24,000 nt of DNA from Pirellula sp. (lineage in GTDB: Bacteria > Planctomycetota > Planctomycetia > Pirellulales > Lacipirellulaceae): positions 39,549-63,548 of the forward strand of contig PNKX01000006.1 in NCBI GenBank assembly GCA_013822725.1, written 5' to 3'. The translations under genes and the position numbers were made by a program. Under the pieces are notes generated by a model. The model worked only from the letters and a program-made list of their open reading frames with translations. It had not been told where the DNA came from and did not search any database. Shown piece after piece: positions 2,362 to 12,305 of the stretch (positions are counted from its first letter, which is position 1; each line of letters starts with the position of its first letter).

Positions 2362-3293
2362 CGTTCGCCTCCATCGACATGCCGCAGCGGCGTTGCGAAT
2401 TCGCCGGCAATCGAACGCACCGTGAGCAACGCCGGATTCGCCCGCGCGAGCTCAGCCGCCCGCGGATGGCTGTTCGTGGCGATAACGTGCGTAATGACGC
2501 CGCTGCTACGAATCTCCGCCAGTGCATCGCCCGAAAACAGACCATGCGTCGTCACGCAGGCCACGCCGCTCGCGCCGGCGCGATGGTACGCCTCCGCCGC
2601 GATCAGCAGCGACCGCCCCGAACGAATCATGTCGTCGTAGATGACGACTTGCCGCCCCGCCACGTCGGCGTTCATCGCGGTGACAACCGGCTGGCCGTCG
2701 GCAAGCCGCTTCTTAAACACAAAACTCGCCGGCACGCCGATCTCGTTCGCCAGCGATTCGACCCACTTCGCACGGCCGGCGTCGGTGCTCGCCAGGACAA
2801 AGCGTTCGCCGCCGAGCTGCTTGATCGCCGCCGTCACCGTCGGCTTGCCGTACACATGCACCGCCCGCAGGCCGTTCTCGAAGTAATACTGAATCCCCTC
2901 GGCATGAAGATCCAACAACAGCAAACGATTCCCCGCACACGCCCGCGGAATCGAAGACAGCAGCTGGGCCCGCGTCTTGGCCTTCACGATCTCGCCGGGG
3001 CGGACGGCGCGATCCATCGTCGCGTAGCCGTAGTAAGGCGCCACGATCGTCAGCGAACGCGCCCCCTCATGCACGAGCCCCGACGCCAGGTCGAACAGTT
3101 CCAACGTCTCCGTTTCCGAAATCGTCCCGCCGACCAGCACGACGTTCCGGTCGCACACGTCCGACGCGATGCGATGATAGAACTCGCCATCGTCGAACGT
3201 CTTCCGTTCGATGGCGCCAAGCTCGCCGCCCGTGATCGCCGCCAACTCGTCACGGAAGTATTCGTAGCTGGCCGTTGCGAAGAGTTGCATCAT
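2358..3293 (-). CDS. prs: Ribose-phosphate pyrophosphokinase (PRPP synthetase) family protein of the type found in NAD-salvage clusters
   Basis: 311 aa. Two PRTase-type halves with a PRPP-binding loop ([14 protein letters not shown]). ATGA overlaps at both ends, with the pncB stop and the nadE start. Confidence 0.8.
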
Positions 3294-4786
3294 CCCTCCG
3301 GAGTTGCGGCAGCCTGCGGATCGCGGGCCGCTTGAATCATGGCGTCGCGCCGCTCATGCAGGCCGACGTCGAGCCCCACCGGGTACTCATGCGGATTCAT
3401 GAACCGGCGAATCGTCGGGTGGAGCCGCTGCAGTTCGCCGCGAGCCCGCTCGCGAACGACTTCCAGCGGCTCGCTCTCCCGGACGACCCGGCCGCCCCGA
3501 ATCACTGGCTTCAGCAAATCTCGCGCATCAACCGTCGCCGGCATCGACTTCCGCCGCGTCGGATCCTTCGCATCGACGACGATCTGCCGCGGATCGACGC
3601 CGCCAAGTTCGTCGTAAATCATATCGCCAAGCATGCCGTCCGCCGTTTCGTAACGCCGCACCTGCAGAATCCCCGGAATGCTCGTCTTCACCGCCTGCTC
3701 CGAAAGCTTCAGCCGCGGCGCCCACTCGCCCTGTTCGTTCTGCACGGCGCCAAGCTTGTACACGCCGCCGAGCGCCGGTTGATCGTACGCGGTCGCCAGC
3801 TTGGTGCCGACGCCCCAGACCGAAATCTTCGCCCCTTGCGCCTTCAAGTTCTCGATGATCCGCTCGTCGAGATCGTTCGACGCCAAGATCTGCGCGTTGG
3901 GAAATCCCCCCGCATCGAGAATCTTGCGGGCTTCAATGCTCAAATAAGCGAGGTCGCCCGAATCGAGCCGCACGCCCACGAGCTCGTGCCCTTCGCTTCG
4001 CAGCTTGGCGCCGATTTCAACCGCACGCCGCACGCCGTCGAGCGTGTCGTAGGTATCAACGAGAAACACGCAGTTGTTCGGCATGGCCTCCGCGTAGCTG
4101 GCGAACGCCTCCGCCTCGGTATCGAACGACATCACCCAGCTGTGGGCGTGCGTCCCCTTCACCGGAATGCCGTACAACTTGCCGGCCAGCACGTTCGAGG
4201 TCGCCGCGCAGCCGCCGATGTAGGCGGCGCGACTGGCCGACAGTCCGCCATCGATTCCCTGCGCCCGCCGCAGCCCGAACTCGACCACCGGATCGCCCGC
4301 CGCCGCTTGGCAAACCCGCGCCGCCTTCGTGGCGATCAGCGTTTGGAAGTTAACGATGTTCAGCAGCGCCGTCTCCAGCAGCTGGCACTGCAAGATCGGC
4401 CCCCTCACGCGCAGCAGCGGCTCTTGCCCGAACGCGACCGTTCCCTCAGGCATCGCGTCGACGTCGCACGCCAAACGGAGCTCGGCCAGGTAGTCGTAAA
4501 ACGCCTGCTCGAACAACGGCTGGCCATCGTTGCCGACCAAGGTGGCGAGATAGGCAATGTCGTCCGGCTCAAAGCGAAACGCCGAGAGATAGTCGATCGC
4601 CGGCGCCAACCCCGCGGCAATGGCATACCCCCCCTGAAACGGCGGCTTCCGAAAGAACAAATGAAACACCGCCGGCTGGTCCGCCCGCCCCTGCTTCCAA
4701 TACCCGTAGGCCATGGTGAGCTGATAGAGGTCGGTCAGCAGGGCTAACGAGGGTCGCGGGAGGTTTTGAATGGTAGCGTCGCTCAT
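3290..4786 (-). CDS. pncB: Nicotinate phosphoribosyltransferase
   Basis: 498 aa. N-terminal [15 protein letters not shown] signature of NAPRTases and a central GTHAHSWV motif. First gene of the coupled pncB-prs-nadE set. Confidence 0.88.
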
Positions 4787-4809
4787 GATAGTGTTTTTAT
4801 AACACTATC
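4787..4809. promoter_or_regulatory. Perfect 9+9 bp palindrome GATAGTGTT-TTTAT-AACACTATC abutting the pncB start codon; NrtR-type operator candidate, with an embedded TATAAA on the minus strand
   Basis: Read directly: arms at 4787-4795 and 4801-4809 are exact reverse complements. The core GTGT-N7-ACAC is shared with the site at 263-281. Confidence 0.45.
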
Positions 4810-4814
4810 TATCG

Positions 4815-4846
4815 ACATGGCAAGAGCGATTTCTTGAGCCCCATGT
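4815..4846 (-). terminator. Interrupted hairpin between the rtcA stop and the pncB promoter region (ACATGG-CAAGA-GCGATT-TCTTG-AGCC-CCATGT)
   Basis: A 6-bp outer stem and a 5-bp inner stem are visible. There is no U-tract on the minus strand, so terminator function is uncertain. Confidence 0.2.
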
Positions 4847-4904
4847 TAGCCGTTTGCTGCACTGCGAACGCCGATCGTCCCCTACAGCCGCTGCCGCTAT
4901 TTAC

Positions 4905-5945
4905 CTATCTACCAACCGTGACGCGACAACACTCCCCCTCGCGTTCGACTTCGATCGGAATCTCAAGAAAGCTGCGCAACAGATCGACATGCGTCTGCGA
5001 ATGCCGGGTGAGCGGCTGCGTCGCGAAAGAACCGCCCCGGCCCGTCTGCCAGGCGGCGATTCCCAGCGGCAACAGCAGTTGATCGGCCAAGTACGGACCA
5101 ACCGGGACGCCTGCCGCCAGATAGCTGCGGGCCTCCTTCACCGCCTCGCCGGCGACACGCTCCGCCGTAGCGCCAAGGCGGCCGAAGCCGGTGAAGACCT
5201 CGCGCACATGCTCCGAGTGGATCTCGATAAGGAAGACGTTTCCCGGTCCGGCCGACTCAATGCTCGCGTCGACATGAAACATCGAGTCGGGCCAGCTGAG
5301 CTTTTCAGCGGCTGCTTCGACTTCACGTCGACCGATCCTCGACGAAAGGTTCGCCACCAGAGCAGTAGCGGAACGCTGGAGGATCTCGCCTCGTTCCAGC
5401 AGATCGAAACCCGCCAGCTGCGGCGTCGGTTCGATTGCCACGCTGAAGCGCCCGCCGCCGGCTGGATAGAATCCATGCCGCTCCAGCCCAGCCGAAATGC
5501 GCGGGCCCATGCGGTTGATTAGCGGAAAGAAGGCTTGGGCGAGAAAGTCGTACGGCGGCGCCCAGGGGTTGTGCGTGCCGCCTTCGAGGACGATCTCCGA
5601 TGGACCGTCGGCAATCAACAGCGCCGGCAGAATCGTTTGCAGCACCAGCGTTGCGCTGCCGGCGGTGCCGACCGAGAAGGTGTGCTGACCCGGACGGATA
5701 GCCGTTGGGCGAAAGGAGAGCGTTTGCGAGCCAATCTCGTCTTCCTCGACTTCCGCGGCGCCGATTTCGACGGCGGCGCGCACCGCCGTGAGATGCTGCC
5801 GCATGAGGCCGGGCTTGTCGCGTCCGGCGCGGATGTTTTCTAGACGAACCGGGCGGCCGGTTACGAGTGCCAGCGCGAGCGACGAGCGGAGAATCTGTCC
5901 GCCGCCCTCGCCTTGCGAGCCATCGATGGTGAAGTTATTTGACAC
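4905..5945 (-). CDS. rtcA: RNA 3'-terminal phosphate cyclase
   Basis: 346 aa. The N-terminus IDGSQGEGGGQILRSSLALALVTGRPVRLENIRAGRDKPGL is the RtcA signature. GTG start at 5945, sharing one nt with the upstream TAG (TAGTG). Confidence 0.92.
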   Translation of the reverse strand: MSNNFTIDGSQGEGGGQILRSSLALALVTGRPVRLENIRAGRDKPGLMRQHLTAVRAAVEIGAAEVEEDEIGSQTLSFRPTAIRPGQHTFSVGTAGSATLVLQTILPALLIADGPSEIVLEGGTHNPWAPPYDFLAQAFFPLINRMGPRISAGLERHGFYPAGGGRFSVAIEPTPQLAGFDLLERGEILQRSATALVANLSSRIGRREVEAAAEKLSWPDSMFHVDASIESAGPGNVFLIEIHSEHVREVFTGFGRLGATAERVAGEAVKEARSYLAAGVPVGPYLADQLLLPLGIAAWQTGRGGSFATQPLTRHSQTHVDLLRSFLEIPIEVEREGECCRVTVGR

Positions 5946-6541
5946 TAGCGGTTTTCTTCCATCATATGGATCGCTTCGTTAATCCCGATTAGCGAACCGG
6001 ACAATTGCTGGAAGCATTCGTTGCAGACGATCGAGAAACCCACCACGCTCGTATGGCGAGGGACTTTCTCGAGGTTACGCTTTCCATCCGAAGATAGCCA
6101 ATAACGAAAGGCGTCTCCCTTCGGATCTACATCATGCAGATCGATAACTACCGAGTCGATGGGCTGAGCCGCCTCATCGTTAAAGATACCAATCTCAATT
6201 AACAATTGCCGGCAGGTTCTCCACAGTGCGTCTAAATCGTGTCCCCATACAATCCGTTCGTTAAATGTACGACCAAGATAGACGTGAGTGCTCGCGATCA
6301 ACTCTTTGGTAATAAGCTCGATCGCATGGCGATGAAGAAAACCAACTGGCCACATTGCCTGGTCGCCGTGATATGAGATCTCTCTTCGGTTCTCAGTGAT
6401 GATCATGGCCGCCTTGTTGTAGGCATTAGCCATGAACTCGGGCGTGTGTTCTCGATACCAATCAGGTATAAAATTGTCGCTTCGTCCCCCGCCTTTGCTC
6501 GTAAACAAAGCATCATTGCGATCTTCACGTTTCTCAGTCAT
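5945..6541 (-). CDS. Orphan helical protein (about 198 aa), possibly HEPN-like, inserted between rtcB and rtcA
   Basis: The ORF fills the whole rtcB-rtcA gap. The track ORF runs to 6568, but the ATG at 6541 (MTEKRED...) overlaps the rtcB stop as ATGACTGA. It contains the Rx4H strings REISYH and RIVWGH(DLDALW). GC is about 49 percent in the first 100 nt counted from 5945, clearly below the flanks. No family was recognised with certainty. Confidence 0.7.
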   Translation of the reverse strand: MTEKREDRNDALFTSKGGGRSDNFIPDWYREHTPEFMANAYNKAAMIITENRREISYHGDQAMWPVGFLHRHAIELITKELIASTHVYLGRTFNERIVWGHDLDALWRTCRQLLIEIGIFNDEAAQPIDSVVIDLHDVDPKGDAFRYWLSSDGKRNLEKVPRHTSVVGFSIVCNECFQQLSGSLIGINEAIHMMEENR

Positions 6542-8051
6542 CCGCCTGATCTCCATCCTTGATGACAAACTTCGCCTTCAACCGCGCCACTTCGCTTGCT
6601 AGTCCCGCGCTCTTTACCGACCGCAGCACTTCGTCGAAATCCTTATACGCGGCAGGCGCCTCGTCGATCGGGTACGCACGGCAATTGGTGAGGATGTCGG
6701 CTTCGTCGAACGAGCGGTCGACTTCCTTTTGATCGAGCGCTCGTTTGGCCGCCTTCCGCCCCAACTGTCGGCCCGCGCCGTGGTTGACGCTGTAGCAACT
6801 GACCGAGGCGCCGGCGTCGGCGGCCATCACGACCGAACCTGCCTGTGGATTGCCGGGGAGCAAAATCGGGTGGCCCGTTTCCGCGAACGGCGTATCGCGC
6901 AGCGCGTGGTGGCCGGCCGGGAAGGCCCGCGTCGCCCCCTTACGGTGTACCCAGGCGATGTTGTTGTTCACCACTTCCTTGCGGGCGATGTTGTGGCTGA
7001 TGAAATAGACCAACTGGCCAGTGACTCCCGGCAGCACCTCTTGGAACGCTTCCAGCACGAGCGCATTGATCAACAGGTGATTGACGGTCGCGAAGTTAGC
7101 GCCGAGCGACATGTCGTCGATATACGCGTCGGCCTCGGGAGTGCCGAGCGGAGCGTAAACGAGCTCGCGGTCGTTGCCGGGAAGCGGGATGTCCCACTGG
7201 GCGAACTTGCCTTGCAAGGCTTTGAATTGGCCCGACGCTAACTGGTGCCCGATGCCGCGCGAACCGCAGTGCGATAGGAACGCCACGCCGCCGTCAACGA
7301 GTCCGAAGACCCGCGCCGCTTCGCGAGCACGGTCGTTGGCTTCGACATGCACCACTTCGCATTCGCCAAAATGGTTGCCGCCGCCGTAGGAACCGAGCTG
7401 CGTCATTTTCAAGTCGAAGCGGTGCATCTGCGGCAGGAGTTGCTCCAGTCGCAGCGCCAGGGCGCCGGTGGAATCGTCGTGGCCCACGTGCGTGGAATCT
7501 TCGCAGCGCGCAGCCCACTCGGGCGGGATGCCGAGTTCTTCGCAAACGCCGCGCGAGGCTCCTTCCACGAGAACGCGCTTGCCGAGGGCTTCGCCAACAT
7601 GGCGCGACTTCGGCGCATTGCGCTGGCCGCGGCCAGCGCCGGTCGGGGTTCGTTCGCAGATCGCGTTGATGAGCGCGCGCCGGGTCGGCCGATCGAGGAT
7701 CGCGTCGGCCGGTAGGCTCGTTTGCAGCAGGCTCATCGAGCATTTGATGTCGACGCCGACCGGGCCGGGGTAAATGTGCGTCGGCGAAACCATGACGCAG
7801 CCGACTGGCGCCCCGTAGCCGCAATGGGCGTCTGGGTTCAGCACCAGATCGGTGACGCCGGGCGCTAGCCGCGAGTTGATCGCCTGCTGCAGGCAGAGGT
7901 CGTCGAAAGTGGCGCGGATCGCCTCAGTGCCGATGACGGTGATCGGCTTTTGCTTCCCGCCGGTTGGCAAGATGGCGGTCGCTTCGCCGTCGGCGATCAT
8001 CTGGAACTTGCCCGACGCAGCGTTCACTTCACTTTTAATGTCAATGCTCAT
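6534..8051 (-). CDS. rtcB: RNA-splicing ligase RtcB (3'-phosphate/5'-hydroxyl RNA ligase), long 505-aa form
   Basis: Motifs LVLNPDAHCGYGAPVG, GGGNHFGE, SHCGSRGIGH and NHGAGR are metal- and GTP-binding signatures of RtcB. Confidence 0.95.
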   Translation of the reverse strand: MSIDIKSEVNAASGKFQMIADGEATAILPTGGKQKPITVIGTEAIRATFDDLCLQQAINSRLAPGVTDLVLNPDAHCGYGAPVGCVMVSPTHIYPGPVGVDIKCSMSLLQTSLPADAILDRPTRRALINAICERTPTGAGRGQRNAPKSRHVGEALGKRVLVEGASRGVCEELGIPPEWAARCEDSTHVGHDDSTGALALRLEQLLPQMHRFDLKMTQLGSYGGGNHFGECEVVHVEANDRAREAARVFGLVDGGVAFLSHCGSRGIGHQLASGQFKALQGKFAQWDIPLPGNDRELVYAPLGTPEADAYIDDMSLGANFATVNHLLINALVLEAFQEVLPGVTGQLVYFISHNIARKEVVNNNIAWVHRKGATRAFPAGHHALRDTPFAETGHPILLPGNPQAGSVVMAADAGASVSCYSVNHGAGRQLGRKAAKRALDQKEVDRSFDEADILTNCRAYPIDEAPAAYKDFDEVLRSVKSAGLASEVARLKAKFVIKDGDQADD

Positions 8052-8074
8052 AGTTCAGTTCACAAGAGTAAAGG

Positions 8075-8212
8075 GCGGCGACAAGGAGTCGAAGAAACAA
8101 GCCTGACGATCTAACCCGTTGATCTACGGCGTCTCGCGACAAGTCACGCGACGCCGGCGGGGCTCGAACCCGCTCCCTTCAGGTTCCATGTAGTTCCTTC
8201 CGCATTCGCCGC
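8075..8212 (-). ncRNA. Y-RNA-like module 5 (YrlA-like, with a permuted tRNA-like domain)
   Basis: Minus strand: closing stem GCGGCGA/UCGCCGC. The 5' strand GAAUGCGGAAGGAACUACAUGG pairs with the 3' strand GUUUCUUCGACUCCUUGUCGCC (GAAGGAAC with GUUUCUUC, using one G-U). T-arm GCGGG-UUCGAGC-CCCGC. Loop-closed acceptor-like stem GGCGUC...GACGCC. D-arm-like GUAGAUCAACGGGUUAGAUCG. The module ends about 24 nt before the rtcB ATG. Confidence 0.75.
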
Positions 8213-8234
8213 TGGCTGAGGGTGTTTAGTAAGT

Positions 8235-8381
8235 TTCGAATAAGAATGACGACAAAGGACGAAGAAACAGTCTGATGCTCTAACCAACTGAGCTACGGCC
8301 GCCGCGTGAGCGACTGCACCGGTGGGACTCGAACCCACGCCCGTCAGGGTGATGTAGTTCCTTCTGCATTCGCCATTCGAA
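8235..8381 (-). ncRNA. Y-RNA-like module 4 (YrlA-like, with a permuted tRNA-like domain)
   Basis: Closing stem UUCGAAU/AUUCGAA. 5' strand GGCGAAUGCAGAAGGAACUACAU, 3' strand GUUUCUUCGUCCUUUGUCGUCAUUC. T-arm GUGGG-UUCGAGU-CCCAC. Loop-closed acceptor stem. Canonical D-arm GUAGCUCAGUUGGUUAGAGC. Confidence 0.8.
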
Positions 8382-8410
8382 GCAGCAACATTCTAGTTAA
8401 GTGGAAGAAT

Positions 8411-8582
8411 CAAAAGCGAAAGGCATGACGACAAAATTGATGAAACGCATACGCGCTCTGCCAGACTGAGCTACGGCCCCGTTGTTGTACCAAACGAGTG
8501 GAGCCGGTGGGATTCGAACCCACGACCTCGGGTTCCTAAGACCATGTAGTTCCATCCGCATTCGTCACGTTTTTCGCCTTTG
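8411..8582 (-). ncRNA. Y-RNA-like module 3 (YrlA-like, with a permuted tRNA-like domain)
   Basis: Long closing stem CAAAGGCGAAA...UUUCGCUUUUG. 5' strand GACGAAUGCGGAUGGAACUACAUGG, 3' strand UUUUGUCGUCAUG. T-arm GUGGG-UUCGAAU-CCCAC. Acceptor stem CGGCUCC/GGGGCCG closed by a 19-nt loop. D-arm GCUC-AGUCUGGCA-GAGC. Confidence 0.8.
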
Positions 8583-8605
8583 GTTAGAAGTGGTTGGTTG
8601 AAAAC

Positions 8606-8716
8606 ATCTCTTGCGACAACAGGGGCGAGACGTCCCGGCCAGCTTCGTTGAAGCCGGTCGAGGCGGGATTCGAACCCGCTTGCGACCATGTAGTCTCGCT
8701 GGCATTCGGAAGAGAT
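8606..8716 (-). ncRNA. Y-RNA-like module 2 (T-arm only, no D-arm)
   Basis: Closing stem AUCUCUU/AAGAGAU. 5' strand CCGAAUGCCAGCGAGACUACAUGG. GCGAGAC pairs with GUCUCGC. 3' motif CUGUUGUCGC. T-arm GCGGG-UUCGAAU-CCCGC, followed by a short hairpin in place of the acceptor and D elements. Confidence 0.7.
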
Positions 8717-8767
8717 TGATCTCGATGTATGGAAGGGAATTGGAAAACGCCGGTCACAGCGACAACA

Positions 8768-8830
8768 GAATCGACAAGGGTTCGTAGAGACGGTCACATG
8801 GGTAAATGTAGTCTCGAAGGCATTCGATTC
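8768..8830 (-). ncRNA. Y-RNA-like module 1 (short, YrlB-like, no tRNA-like domain)
   Basis: Closing stem GAAUCGA/UCGAUUC. Shares AAUGCC..CGAGACUACAU on the 5' strand and GUCUCUACGAA..CCCUUGUCG on the 3' strand with the other modules. 63 nt. Confidence 0.6.
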
Positions 8831-8855
8831 AGTTGTCGCCAGAAGTCCGCCGTCG

Positions 8856-8889
8856 GGGAGGGAGGGCGCCCGCAACGTCCCTCCCTCCC
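8856..8889 (-). other. Perfect 11-bp GGGAGGGAGGG/CCCUCCCUCCC hairpin with a 12-nt loop, between the rsr stop and the first Y-RNA-like module
   Basis: Arms at 8856-8866 and 8879-8889 are exact reverse complements. No U-tract follows on the minus strand, so it is more likely a processing or stability element than a terminator. Confidence 0.5.
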
Positions 8890-8900
8890 GCACTTGCTCG

Positions 8901-10478
8901 TTACAATCGCACCGCTTCGATCACGCGGACCCAGTGATCGCCGGCGAACTGGCCGCTCGCCACGTTGGCGAGCAACTCGAACACCTGATCGCTGAAGCCG
9001 CCGACGTTGATGATGTCGTCTCGCTCCTTGGCTTGCACCGTGCCTGACGGTTGAATGTCGATGCAGACCATTCGCGCCCGCGGATTGCGGGCTTTGAAGG
9101 CAGACCATTCATTCATCGTCGCGGTTCGGCCTCCGCCAAAACGACCGTAGCCGGGCGTATCGATCCACGACTCGTTATCCGAGACGAAGACCACCAAGTC
9201 GCCCACGGCGCGTCGCTGGTTGAGCGTTCGCAACGGGGCGCTGCAGTTCGTACCCGCAGGCGGCAACGACGAAAGCTTCTGGGCGTTCGTCATCACGCTG
9301 TTGCGCGGGTTCAGCCGAACGTTGACTGTTTGGTCGTTGAACGGCAGCACCTCCGCCTCCGGATTTTGTCGCAGCACCGCCGCCGCGACGAGCGCCGCCA
9401 CGTCGATGCAACGAACCGCAGTCGTCGCGCCGTGGCGATGGCCAGTGACAGGCGAGTGCATCGACCCCGACACGTCAGGGCAGATGAACGCCTTTCCCGC
9501 CACGCGGGGCACGTTCTTCAACGATAGTTCCATCGCGTCTTGCAGCGACTCGCGCACCGCCGTCGGCACGCGAGCGTCGGCGTTCGCGTATGCCGTCATC
9601 AACTGGTACGGGAAGACTCGCGCCTTCTCCACCAGCCGAGGATCGCGCAGCCGGTTGGCAATGAGCGTCGTCATTTCAGCATCCTCGAACACTTCGTGCC
9701 GCAGGAACGTGTTGAGATTCATCCGCGTCATTTGCCAAGGCGCCGTCCGCGCAATCTGCCGCCAATCTTTCTTCGTCAACGGCAACGCCGTCAACAGTTG
9801 GAACGGCACGTCGGGCACGGCGACCTTTCCCGGATTGGTGTTGCGCTTGAACTTTTCGTACTGCTTCACCAATTCCGGCAAGGCCTCGGCGTTGTGCTGA
9901 CGACCGATCAAGTAGCCGTACAACGCTTCCCGGGTTGGGTTCGCCGGCTTCGGGTGGACCAGTCGCAGCACGTCGGCCAGCGACGGAGCGTTGCCGACCG
10001 AACCAGTGAAGACCTGCGCGTCGCTCCGCGATTCAAGCCATTGAACGATTAACCGCTTCGGCAGCGTGCCCAAGCTCTTGCGACCCACTACGCCCGATCG
10101 CATGATTTGCACGAAGTTGCGGAGCATCTTCGGCGAGTCGATGACGCGATCGAAGGCCTCGGCTAGCAACCCCGGCGAGCGAACCGACAACACCGCCAAG
10201 AGCAGCGCCGGCATGTCTTTTATGTGGCCACGCTCACGAGCGTAGATGGCGGTACGAGCGATAAACTCCGGCTCAACGGCGTTGCACAGCATGAGAACCG
10301 CTTCGAGCTGCTCCTCTGCGGAGGCGTAAAAGGCCGCGCCCAGGCAACCAGTCGCCGCGTATTGGGCGAGGGCTTGCTTGTCGCTGCGCTGGTAGGCGAG
10401 GCCGCCCGCTTCGTTAACGGCGTCGGCCTTCGGGGTCAGGACGCCGCGGAGTGACTGGAAAAGTGATTTGTTCGCCAT
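8901..10478 (-). CDS. rsr: Ro60 ortholog (TROVE domain plus vWA domain) ribonucleoprotein Rsr
   Basis: 525 aa. N-terminal TROVE-like HEAT-repeat region. C-terminal vWA domain with the MIDAS motif DVSGSM. Located between the sigma54 promoter and the Y-RNA-like array, as in the described rsr-yrl-rtcBA operons. Confidence 0.88.
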   Translation of the reverse strand: MANKSLFQSLRGVLTPKADAVNEAGGLAYQRSDKQALAQYAATGCLGAAFYASAEEQLEAVLMLCNAVEPEFIARTAIYARERGHIKDMPALLLAVLSVRSPGLLAEAFDRVIDSPKMLRNFVQIMRSGVVGRKSLGTLPKRLIVQWLESRSDAQVFTGSVGNAPSLADVLRLVHPKPANPTREALYGYLIGRQHNAEALPELVKQYEKFKRNTNPGKVAVPDVPFQLLTALPLTKKDWRQIARTAPWQMTRMNLNTFLRHEVFEDAEMTTLIANRLRDPRLVEKARVFPYQLMTAYANADARVPTAVRESLQDAMELSLKNVPRVAGKAFICPDVSGSMHSPVTGHRHGATTAVRCIDVAALVAAAVLRQNPEAEVLPFNDQTVNVRLNPRNSVMTNAQKLSSLPPAGTNCSAPLRTLNQRRAVGDLVVFVSDNESWIDTPGYGRFGGGRTATMNEWSAFKARNPRARMVCIDIQPSGTVQAKERDDIINVGGFSDQVFELLANVASGQFAGDHWVRVIEAVRL

Positions 10479-10538: not shown

Positions 10539-10554
10539 TGCAGGGAGCGTGCCA
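10539..10554 (-). promoter_or_regulatory. Sigma54 (-24/-12) promoter for the rsr / Y-RNA / rtcB / orphan / rtcA operon
   Basis: The minus strand reads TGGCAC-GCTCC-CTGCA with exact GG-N10-GC spacing. It lies about 60 nt upstream of the rsr ATG (10478) and is divergent from rtcR, which encodes a sigma54 activator. Confidence 0.75.

Positions 10555-10724: not shown

Positions 10725-12305
<1,581 letters not shown>

Follow-up and report, generated by a model that had tools for sequence, protein, structure and literature searches.

A predicted array of five Y RNAs from three conserved classes between rsr and rtcB in Pirellula sp.

The rsr-rtcB interval and its five modules

We examined a 24,000-nucleotide (nt) stretch of Pirellula sp. 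DNA (GenBank assembly GCA_013822725.1, contig PNKX01000006.1, positions 39,549 to 63,548), referred to here as the window, in which 850 nt separate rsr, the gene for the Ro60 ortholog, from the RNA ligase gene rtcB. This interval holds five minus-strand modules, M1 to M5, and positions 8072-8839 very probably encode five separate Ro60/Rsr-binding Y RNAs of three old classes that would be co-transcribed with rsr, rtcB and rtcA and then excised. Gene context, a promoter-like site, motifs, class membership, covariation and conserved order could be read directly from this locus and its relatives. The genes and modules that bear on this reading are listed below.

10725-12305, plus strand: rtcR, a sigma-54-dependent activator divergent from the operon (Pfam RtcR, 1.8e-79; Sigma54_activat, 1.8e-49)
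10539-10554, minus strand: sigma-54-type promoter TGGCAC-N5-CTGCA, 5′ of rsr, read in the sequence
8901-10478, minus strand: rsr, Ro60 ortholog of 525 amino acids (Pfam vWA_Ro60, 2.3e-13; TROVE, 8.9e-08)
8768-8830, minus strand: core of M1 (63 nt; 8759-8839 with its outer helix), hairpin class (H), YrlB-like
8607-8712, minus strand: M2, T-arm-only class (T); T-arm 8663-8679, 12-bp hairpin 8634-8662, no D-arm
8422-8568, minus strand: M3, full YrlA-like module, subclass Fa; T-arm 8507-8523, D-arm 8455-8471; acceptor of CGGCUCC at 8500-8506 (3′ strand), A73 at 8499, loop 8481-8499 including A73, and GGGGCCG at 8474-8480 (5′ strand)
8243-8376, minus strand: M4, full YrlA-like module, subclass Fb; T-arm 8322-8338, interrupted acceptor stem-loop 8296-8321, D-arm 8277-8293
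8072-8212, minus strand: M5, full YrlA-like module, subclass Fb and paralog of M4; T-arm 8157-8173, D-arm 8108-8124; acceptor of CGGCGUC at 8150-8156 with GACGCCG at 8127-8133, the helix running on through 8134-8149
6534-8051, minus strand: rtcB, RNA ligase (Pfam RtcB, 1.2e-101)
4905-5945, minus strand: rtcA, RNA 3′-phosphate cyclase (Pfam RTC, 2.9e-74)

The Rsr product is 82-93% identical to planctomycete TROVE proteins, the nearest being from Planctomycetota metagenome-assembled genomes (MAGs) of a Planctomycetaceae (93%) and a Lacipirellula (82%), and its match to the NCBIfam model RNA-bind_Rsr (2.9e-20) falls under the cut-off of that model. The sigma-54 consensus is TGGCAC-N5-TTGC, and the site at 10539-10554, called by eye without a sigma-54 promoter tool, has the matching spacing of the GG and GC elements. 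The whole layout, rtcR followed by rsr, the Y modules, rtcB and rtcA, is that of the rsr-Y-rtcBA locus of Salmonella (PMC7790460).

An earlier sequence-only reading of the window had proposed five consecutive minus-strand modules in this interval, each closing on its own terminal stem and all sharing a 5′ strand. All five were found where it had placed them, each with a terminal stem in its minimum free energy (MFE) fold. The 5′ motif CGAATGC-N5-RRACTACAT has five matches in the window, one in each module and all within 8188-8826 on the minus strand, with 0.00 expected from shuffled sequence, and the T-loop motif GGGTTCGARNCCC has four, in M2-M5, with 0.01 expected. The proposed common 3′ strand, UUGUCG(Y)C, was recovered in M3-M5 and is missing from M2 (UUGUCGCA) and from the M1 core (UUGUCGAU). 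Spacers of 30-55 nt, A/U-rich and pyrimidine-rich, lie between the modules.

The modules differ in what sits on the stem. M1, whose core at 8768-8830 has the proposed length, consists of the stem GAAUCGA/UCGAUUC, CGAAUGC, ACUACAU and a small pyrimidine-rich loop; its MFE fold is a hairpin with the loop UUUACCC, as in hairpin Y RNAs of the YrlB or Yrn2 type. It is further enclosed by an 8-bp outer helix, GCGACAAC/GUUGUCGC, which pairs 8832-8839 with 8759-8766 and repeats the UUGUCGC stem motif in its 3′ strand. This outer helix is specific to this genome and absent from four related loci (L001, L002, L003 and L005). M2 does have the T-arm assigned to it, but not the T-arm alone, as a 12-bp acceptor-like hairpin is stacked after it. 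M3-M5 carry a permuted tRNA-like domain, made up of a variable region, T-arm, closed acceptor stem-loop and D-arm on the 5′/3′ stem, and the D-arm sequence given earlier for M4, GUAGCUCAGUUGGUUAGAGC, is present there. A 7-bp acceptor stem had been proposed for all three: it holds for M3 (GGGGCCG/CGGCUCC) and for M5 (GACGCCG/CGGCGUC, where the helix continues), and fails for M4, in which 4 bp, a bulge and 5 bp are found. The grading from no tRNA-like part in M1, with neither arm, through a T-arm without a D-arm in M2, to a full domain in M3-M5 is real, and so is the permuted tRNA mimicry of M3-M5 with the Y stem in place of the anticodon arm.

Identity of the modules as Y RNAs

YrlA-type RNAs are recognised by the Rsr motif GNCGAAN0-1G near the 5′ end and by a YUAY that opens the variable loop; further defining traits are binding and stabilisation by Rsr and the tRNA modifications that TruB and DusA introduce (Chen et al. 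2014, PMC4201824). The modules at 8072-8839 lie within 4 kb of rsr and share its strand, the Rsr motif is complete in M3 (GACGAAUG) and in M4 and M5 (GGCGAAUG), and YUAY is found, as CUAC, in all five modules. A search with Infernal and the Rfam YrlA model (RF02553) at permissive thresholds, a check that the sequence-only reading had suggested, matched M3-M5 with E-values of 2e-12 to 5e-15. These three align end-to-end with model positions 1-114, with M4 at 67.3 bits (E 5.3e-15), M3 at 65.6 bits (E 1.6e-14) and M5 at 58.1 bits (E 2.4e-12). M2 reaches 26.5 bits and M1 is unmatched by this model even at permissive thresholds. To place the two short modules we relied on models built from orthologs with the window excluded: model R2, from 38 hairpin-class orthologs, matches M1 at 53.7 bits (E 2.1e-12), and model R3, from 21 T-class orthologs, matches M2 at 63.4 bits (E 1.4e-15).

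Several points weigh against this assignment. All three full modules score under the YrlA gathering cut-off of 69 bits, although this value is a curators' threshold and not a biological feature. M1 (AUCGAAUG) and M2 (UCCGAAUG) have A or U for the first G of the published Rsr motif. Lastly, the MFE of M1 is significantly below that of shuffled sequences (z = -6.6) but those of M2-M5 are no better than shuffles (z -0.3 to -1.4), and support for these modules therefore rests on covariance models and covariation, not on thermodynamics. Taken with the Pfam context and the covariance model matches, which uphold the earlier proposal of Y RNAs of the YrlA/YrlB kind in an rsr-Y-rtcBA locus, the evidence supports the modules as YrlA/YrlB-type Y RNA genes, with ordered arrays of several classes as the new aspect.

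Because the modules mimic tRNA, a cluster of tRNA genes or tRNA pseudogenes had to be weighed as well. The sole Rfam match at gathering thresholds in this region is in fact to tRNA, at 8149-8302 on the minus strand (38.8 bits, cut-off 29). This match is a chimera of two modules: its D-arm comes from M4 and its T-arm from M5, an insert of 83 nt separates the two, and four of its acceptor pairs are non-standard. ARAGORN predicts zero tRNA or transfer-messenger RNA (tmRNA) genes in the window, and none of the modules has an anticodon arm, as the Y stem occupies that position. Module anatomy rules the tRNA reading out, no cloverleaf with an anticodon arm and free ends being found, and we give it next to no chance of being correct. 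A tmRNA was also considered and rejected: in addition to the ARAGORN result, Rfam scores are 29.9 and 19.1 bits with a cut-off of 47, and only the acceptor/T part is alike. For annotation this means that tandem YrlA genes can yield false tRNA calls above threshold while true YrlA matches fall just under theirs.

Conservation and covariation in related loci

To see how widespread these modules are, we used an Rsr protein alignment to fetch 80 loci (labelled L001 onwards); they come from species-representative genomes, which belong to Planctomycetota, Acidobacteriota and Verrucomicrobiota, plus a few others. The rtcR / rsr-array-rtcB(-rtcA) arrangement is kept in most of them. A full-module covariance model built from M3-M5, which overlooks many short hairpins, gave 299 matches in 81 sources, 278 of them full-length on the rsr strand, with 1-6 per locus. 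Among the best 150 full modules, 98.3% of cells are in standard pairs, compensatory changes are seen in 25 of the 28 pairs, and sliding the partner by 1-3 columns as a control leaves 36-59% paired. This alignment was fitted to the model and hence favours structure, but the margin over the slid controls is very large. M3-M5 show compensatory changes in nine pairs even among themselves.

The short modules have relatives of their own. Forty modules of ~100 nt align with M2, with compensatory changes in 18 of the 20 predicted pairs and the consensus UGGCGAAUGCCGGUGGGAGUACAU ... GGGUUCGAA.CCCGCC, then a variable hairpin, then CUCUCACC ... CUUGUCGCC. Another 40, of ~63 nt, align with M1, with compensatory changes in 11 of 15 pairs and the consensus GGGCCGAAUGC.G..GGGACUACAU ... 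GUCUC..C ... CUUGUCGGCC. Each class can be told by its signature, CCGAAUGC...GGGACUACAU for H and GGGAGUACAU...CUCUCAC for T. The sequence-only reading had named covariation in orthologous loci as a way of checking the stems, and they are supported for the full (F), T and H classes alike.

Counted over the 80 loci, H modules occur in ~55, T modules in 50 (E <= 1e-10) and F modules in 78. H and T are both present in Planctomycetota, Acidobacteriota and Verrucomicrobiota, usually as a neighbouring H-T pair, and the pair stays adjacent even where it lies behind full modules (L020, L021, L023 and L028). The commonest orders 3′ of rsr are H-T-F (seven loci) and H-T-F-F (five loci), with H-x-T-F-F-F, where x is the module type described below, also common. 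L003, from Adhaeretor mobilis HG15A2, has the H-T-F-F array. The longest arrays have seven modules, as in L053. The sequence-only reading had seen an unusual expansion in five copies and had suggested comparing module number across relatives; this comparison shows instead that between two and seven modules are usual among the related loci. Since such ordered arrays are widespread, the H-T-F-F-F array of the window is, as judged from these sequences, a typical member of a widespread architecture.

We also observed a further module type of ~125 nt, designated x, which is absent from the window, scores low with the full-module model and is without a recognisable T-loop. Examples are L036 7732-7859, L054 3819-3945, L061 2220-2344, L067 2082-2207, L050 7735-7861 and L040 7746-7901. 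It sits between the H and T modules in Verrucomicrobiota and some Phycisphaerae.

A different arrangement was seen in seven Acidobacteriota loci (L037, L039, L056, L066, L071, L077 and L080), which have full modules 5′ of rsr and a T module 3′ of it. In L037, L071 and L077 a hairpin is also found 3′ of rsr, giving the reversed order T then H. The array is thus rearranged around rsr in this lineage. The nearby RtcB-like gene of the same seven loci is only 26-28% identical.

Evolution of the array

The graded series had been taken earlier as a record of duplication and decay. On that account the array is a recent local expansion, in which YrlA copies lost the D-arm and then the tRNA-like domain, leaving M1 and M2 as decaying relics. 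The same stem motifs do occur in all five modules, M4 and M5 look like a lineage-specific duplication, and the M1 stem is off its class consensus (GAAUCGA in place of GGGCCGA). Against this, H and T each have a signature of their own and are kept as distinct classes across three phyla, usually paired with each other, compensatory changes are found in most of their base pairs, and M1 and M2 are matched by models built from other genomes only. Conservation largely refutes the decay account, which we consider highly improbable. By sequence comparison, H, T and F are instead three anciently separate classes with the preferred order H-T-F(n), and not stages of decay.

Within the full modules at least two old subclasses can be distinguished, Fa (M3) and Fb (M4 and M5). 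The first full modules of L001 and L002 both share 92% identity with M3, which is thereby better conserved than Rsr itself (82% and 78% identical, respectively). M4 and M5 are 77% identical to each other; the nearest relatives of M4 are the second full modules of L003 and L001 (L003_F2 and L001_F2, 82%), and M5 is 84% identical to L001_F2. Since M4 and M5 are both nearest (82-84%) to the single second full module that L001 and L003 hold, they look like the products of a lineage-specific duplication of this module, apparently the only such event in the array.

The junction with rtcB and neighbouring features

The distance from M5 to the rtcB start codon (ATG, 8051) is 20 nt when measured from the model match and 23 nt when measured from the stem, which ends at 8075, in agreement with the ~24 nt given earlier. 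As the last module abuts rtcB, the rtcB leader would be very short after processing. This proximity raises the question of whether the array acts mainly in cis, as a structured rtcB leader whose stems control how rtcB is translated or how stable its mRNA is, for instance as binding sites of Rsr, of tRNA-binding proteins or of damaged-RNA signals. The gap measures 19-24 nt in the nearest relatives (L001, L002, L003 and L005), 20 of 36 loci have one of <=40 nt, and no promoter or convincing terminator was found in the rsr-rtcB interval. A scan of the interval gave no sigma-70-like promoter, such a scan being possibly ill-suited to planctomycetes, and the sole terminator-like match on the operon strand there lies inside M3 and is no better than in shuffles. 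In the other 16 of the 36 loci the gap is 44-1023 nt, arrays of the same classes lie 5′ of rsr in L037, L039, L056, L066 and L080, and arrays are also present in loci without rtcB within 6 kb (L011, L035 and L042). Homologous RNAs accumulate free and Rsr-bound in characterised species (PMC4201824). Because arrays also occur 5′ of rsr or without rtcB, a purely cis role is unlikely, and we regard the leader explanation as a whole as very unlikely. The conserved tight junction is a matter of anatomy and not evidence of a coupling between processing and translation.

Two further features accompany the operon.

8856-8889, minus strand: G+C-rich hairpin, GGGAGGGAGGG / CCCUCCCUCCC, directly 3′ of the rsr stop codon, kept with compensatory changes in L001, L003 and L005
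5948-6556, minus strand: orphan open reading frame (ORF) of 203 amino acids between rtcB and rtcA, overlapping the end of rtcB

There is no T-run 3′ of the hairpin at 8856-8889, and it may shield the 3′ end of the rsr mRNA once the Y RNAs have been cut away. The orphan ORF gave zero matches in Pfam, NCBIfam and PADLOC scans and was found in none of the 80 related loci; the sole homolog, a hypothetical protein in a Pirellula sp. MAG, is identical to it. It probably stands outside the Y RNA system. An unrelated orphan ORF, of 237 amino acids, occupies the rtcB-rtcA junction of L003, and several relatives have a gap of 0.6-1.3 kb at this point, so that the junction looks like a slot for variable cargo.

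An alanine-type acceptor stem in the M3 subclass

The acceptor of M3, GGGGCCG / CGGCUCC followed by A, forms a 7-bp helix on the T-arm with G1-C72, G2-C71, G3.U70, G4-C69 and A73. In bacteria the alanine identity set comprises A73, G2-C71, G3.U70, G4-C69 and G20, and every known non-mitochondrial tRNA-Ala keeps G1-C72, G2-C71, G3.U70 and A73 (PMC9976931). M4 and M5 are without this set. We therefore looked at the acceptors of the 150 best full modules, 111 of which have seven standard acceptor pairs. G.U pairs number 6, 5, 48, 8, 4, 1 and 4 at acceptor pairs 1-7, respectively, and A73 accompanies G3.U70 in 45 of 48 modules compared with 17 of the 63 others (Fisher p = 3e-13). The whole set of G1-C72, G2-C71, G3.U70 and A73 is present in 42 modules including M3, spread over 37 of 78 loci and 12 stem sequences. 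Pairs 4-7 covary within this group, with pairs 1-3 and N73 unchanged. In 32 of the 42 the helix ends after exactly 7 bp, as opposed to 16 of 69 others (it continues in 53 of the 69), and the loop that joins A73 to G1 varies from 7 to 69 nt and is unconserved in sequence. In M3 the encoded stem is closed by the 19-nt loop ACUCGUUUGGUACAACAAC. Two members, L053 8146-8274 and L036 7989-8123, encode ACCA.

Selection on the alanine identity set in the M3 subclass is very likely. AlaRS (alanyl-tRNA synthetase) charges acceptor/T minihelices without an anticodon. As AlaRS reads the acceptor helix, alanine is the one identity open to a mimic that lacks an anticodon, as in tmRNA; the enzyme depends chiefly on the G3.U70 acceptor pair (PMC6451123). 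In M. smegmatis, a YrlA with a 7-bp acceptor is cut by ribonuclease P (RNase P) and has CCA added, with both halves staying bound to Rsr (PMC4201824), and the 7-bp acceptor stem was named as the determinant of this cleavage (Chen et al. 2014, PMC4201824). By analogy, the likeliest reading of M3 is that RNase P would open the 7-bp acceptor stem, after which the new 3′ end would be trimmed, completed with CCA and then recognised by AlaRS, which could charge it while the Y stem holds Rsr. The M3 subclass, found in about half of the sampled rsr loci, would then be a two-piece, alanine-accepting tRNA mimic bound to Rsr through its Y stem. We put this forward tentatively, on the strength of the acceptor sequences, and consider actual alanylation of the subclass unlikely.

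Our caution has several sources, all of them points against the alanine step. CCA is unencoded in M3, where A-C-U is found. The D-loop of M3, AGUCUGGCA, has C at position 20 and not the minor determinant G20. Bacterial RNase P prefers U at N-1, and this position is mostly C. The acceptor of the YrlA of mycobacteriophage ET08 is not alanine-like, and therefore that of the cleaved M. smegmatis YrlA may not be either. Aminoacylation was left open, and judged unlikely as a general property of Y RNAs, by Chen et al. 2014 (PMC4201824). A link between YrlA and alanine was found neither in Chen 2014 and Wang 2018 nor in a full-text literature search that did not extend to two reviews (Sim and Wolin 2018; Boccitto and Wolin 2019) or to the 2020 Annual Review.

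It is possible, if rather unlikely, that the acceptor of the M3 subclass stays closed and uncharged. It would then be a decoy for, or be bound by, some reader of the tRNA-Ala acceptor stem (AlaRS, a trans-editing factor or a tRNase toxin that acts on acceptor stems, for instance), or else a relic of tRNA-Ala ancestry. Most YrlA acceptor stems are thought to be closed (bioRxiv 10.1101/312249), YrlA has been proposed as a competitive inhibitor of a tRNA nuclease (Hughes et al., PMC7790460), and CCA is unencoded in most members. Mere inheritance fails to explain an invariant G.U and A73 while pairs 4-7 covary across three phyla. The helix end at exactly 7 bp, unlike other full modules, coincides with the RNase P determinant of the M. 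smegmatis RNA, which tells against a closed decoy, as does a loop so variable in length and sequence, which is what would be expected of a discarded spacer.

If true, alanylation would make the M3 subclass a Ro60-tethered counterpart of the tRNA-like domain of tmRNA, which could bring Rsr, together with exoribonucleases or RtcB, to EF-Tu or ribosomes in an RNA-damage response. An alanine set on a stem of tRNA length turns the question of Y RNA aminoacylation into a simple biochemical test.

The phage YrlA RNAs were examined for an alanine-type acceptor as a link to the cleaved mycobacterial RNA. No YrlA match was found in Myxococcus phage Mx1 or Streptomyces phage Patelgo. Gordonia phage BlueNGold (L084) has a YrlA match at 5727-5826 (52.1 bits) that overlaps an annotated tRNA-Leu (5687-5775). 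At 2962-7532 of the same phage a Ro60-like gene is followed by a tmRNA gene and then by a long tRNA array, so that here Ro60 adjoins a translation-rescue RNA in a phage.

Proposed mechanism

Transcription as one unit, processing, the binding of Rsr, separate partners for the different heads and the RNase P, CCA and alanine steps discussed above are modelled on characterised systems. In the mechanism we propose, an RtcR-activated sigma-54 promoter would drive rsr, the array, rtcB and rtcA as one polycistronic transcript, from which the modules would be cut out at the A/U-rich spacers. Y RNAs are known to be processed from polycistronic precursors (Chen et al. 2014, PMC4201824). In each module the 5′ end would pair with the 3′ end as a Y stem (CGAAUGC ... 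CUUGUCG) carrying the Rsr-binding motif, and on this stem would sit one of the three kinds of head, namely a plain hairpin (M1), a T-arm on a closed minihelix (M2) or a full permuted tRNA-like domain (M3-M5). The different heads may tether Rsr to different partners, or gate it differently, in the RNA-damage response that induces RtcR.

To our knowledge, the functions of bacterial Y RNAs are largely open beyond the tethering of Rsr to PNPase in Deinococcus. In many rsr loci three or four conserved Y RNA classes follow one another in a set order, in place of one YrlA with an idiosyncratic YrlB, which implies several distinct, selected roles for the RNA heads. Family alignments are now available for the formerly orphan short classes H and T.

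Comparison with known systems

The closest match for the full modules is YrlA, for which the crystal structure of the Salmonella tRNA-like domain is available (Wang et al. 2018). As with YrlA, the modules adjoin rsr on the same strand, in an rsr-Y-rtcBA locus under RtcR as in Salmonella, and M3-M5 share the GNCGAAN0-1G stem, YUAY and the permuted T-arm, closed acceptor and D-arm. They differ in being three paralogous copies rather than one, in scoring just under the Rfam cut-off, and in the exactly 7-bp acceptor with the alanine set in the M3 subclass, a feature unmentioned in Chen 2014 and Wang 2018. The host here belongs to the phylum Planctomycetota. M3 also resembles the M. smegmatis YrlA in its 7-bp acceptor and in the C that follows N73 in both, with the difference that RNase P cleavage was seen there and M3 is known from its sequence only.

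M1 and M2 can be likened to YrlB of Salmonella and M. smegmatis and to Yrn2 of Deinococcus radiodurans, each a second, shorter Rsr-bound Y RNA beside YrlA in the same precursor; the M. smegmatis YrlB has a T-arm, like M2 (PMC4201824). Salmonella YrlB has no detectable homologs outside S. enterica (PMC4201824). In contrast, H and T occur as conserved classes in three phyla, at fixed array positions, and are families in their own right, their likeness to the published YrlB RNAs being judged here from published descriptions.

Two-piece tmRNAs, which have permuted genes, resemble the M3 subclass in having a tRNA-like domain without an anticodon arm, in G1-C72, G2-C71, G3.U70 and A73, and in the gene order, with the 3′ acceptor strand encoded ahead of the 5′ strand and a spacer separating the two. 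Several orthologs of M3 carry the acceptor GGGGCUG/CAGCUCC-A, which we take to be that of the E. coli tmRNA. The Rfam tmRNA_permuted model gives a weak match at 8472-8523 (29.9 bits), far under its cut-off of 47. Unlike tmRNA, the modules have neither a tag reading frame nor pseudoknots, and the body of the RNA is a Ro60-binding stem.

Lastly, the rsr locus of Deinococcus radiodurans also has clustered small RNAs (a, b, c = Yrn1, d, e = Yrn2), some of them with T-arms, made from polycistronic precursors (PMC4201824). That cluster belongs to a separate lineage with another arrangement of arms, and three of its five RNAs are not counted as Y RNAs (PMC4201824), whereas one stem architecture is found in all five modules of the Pirellula sp. 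array.

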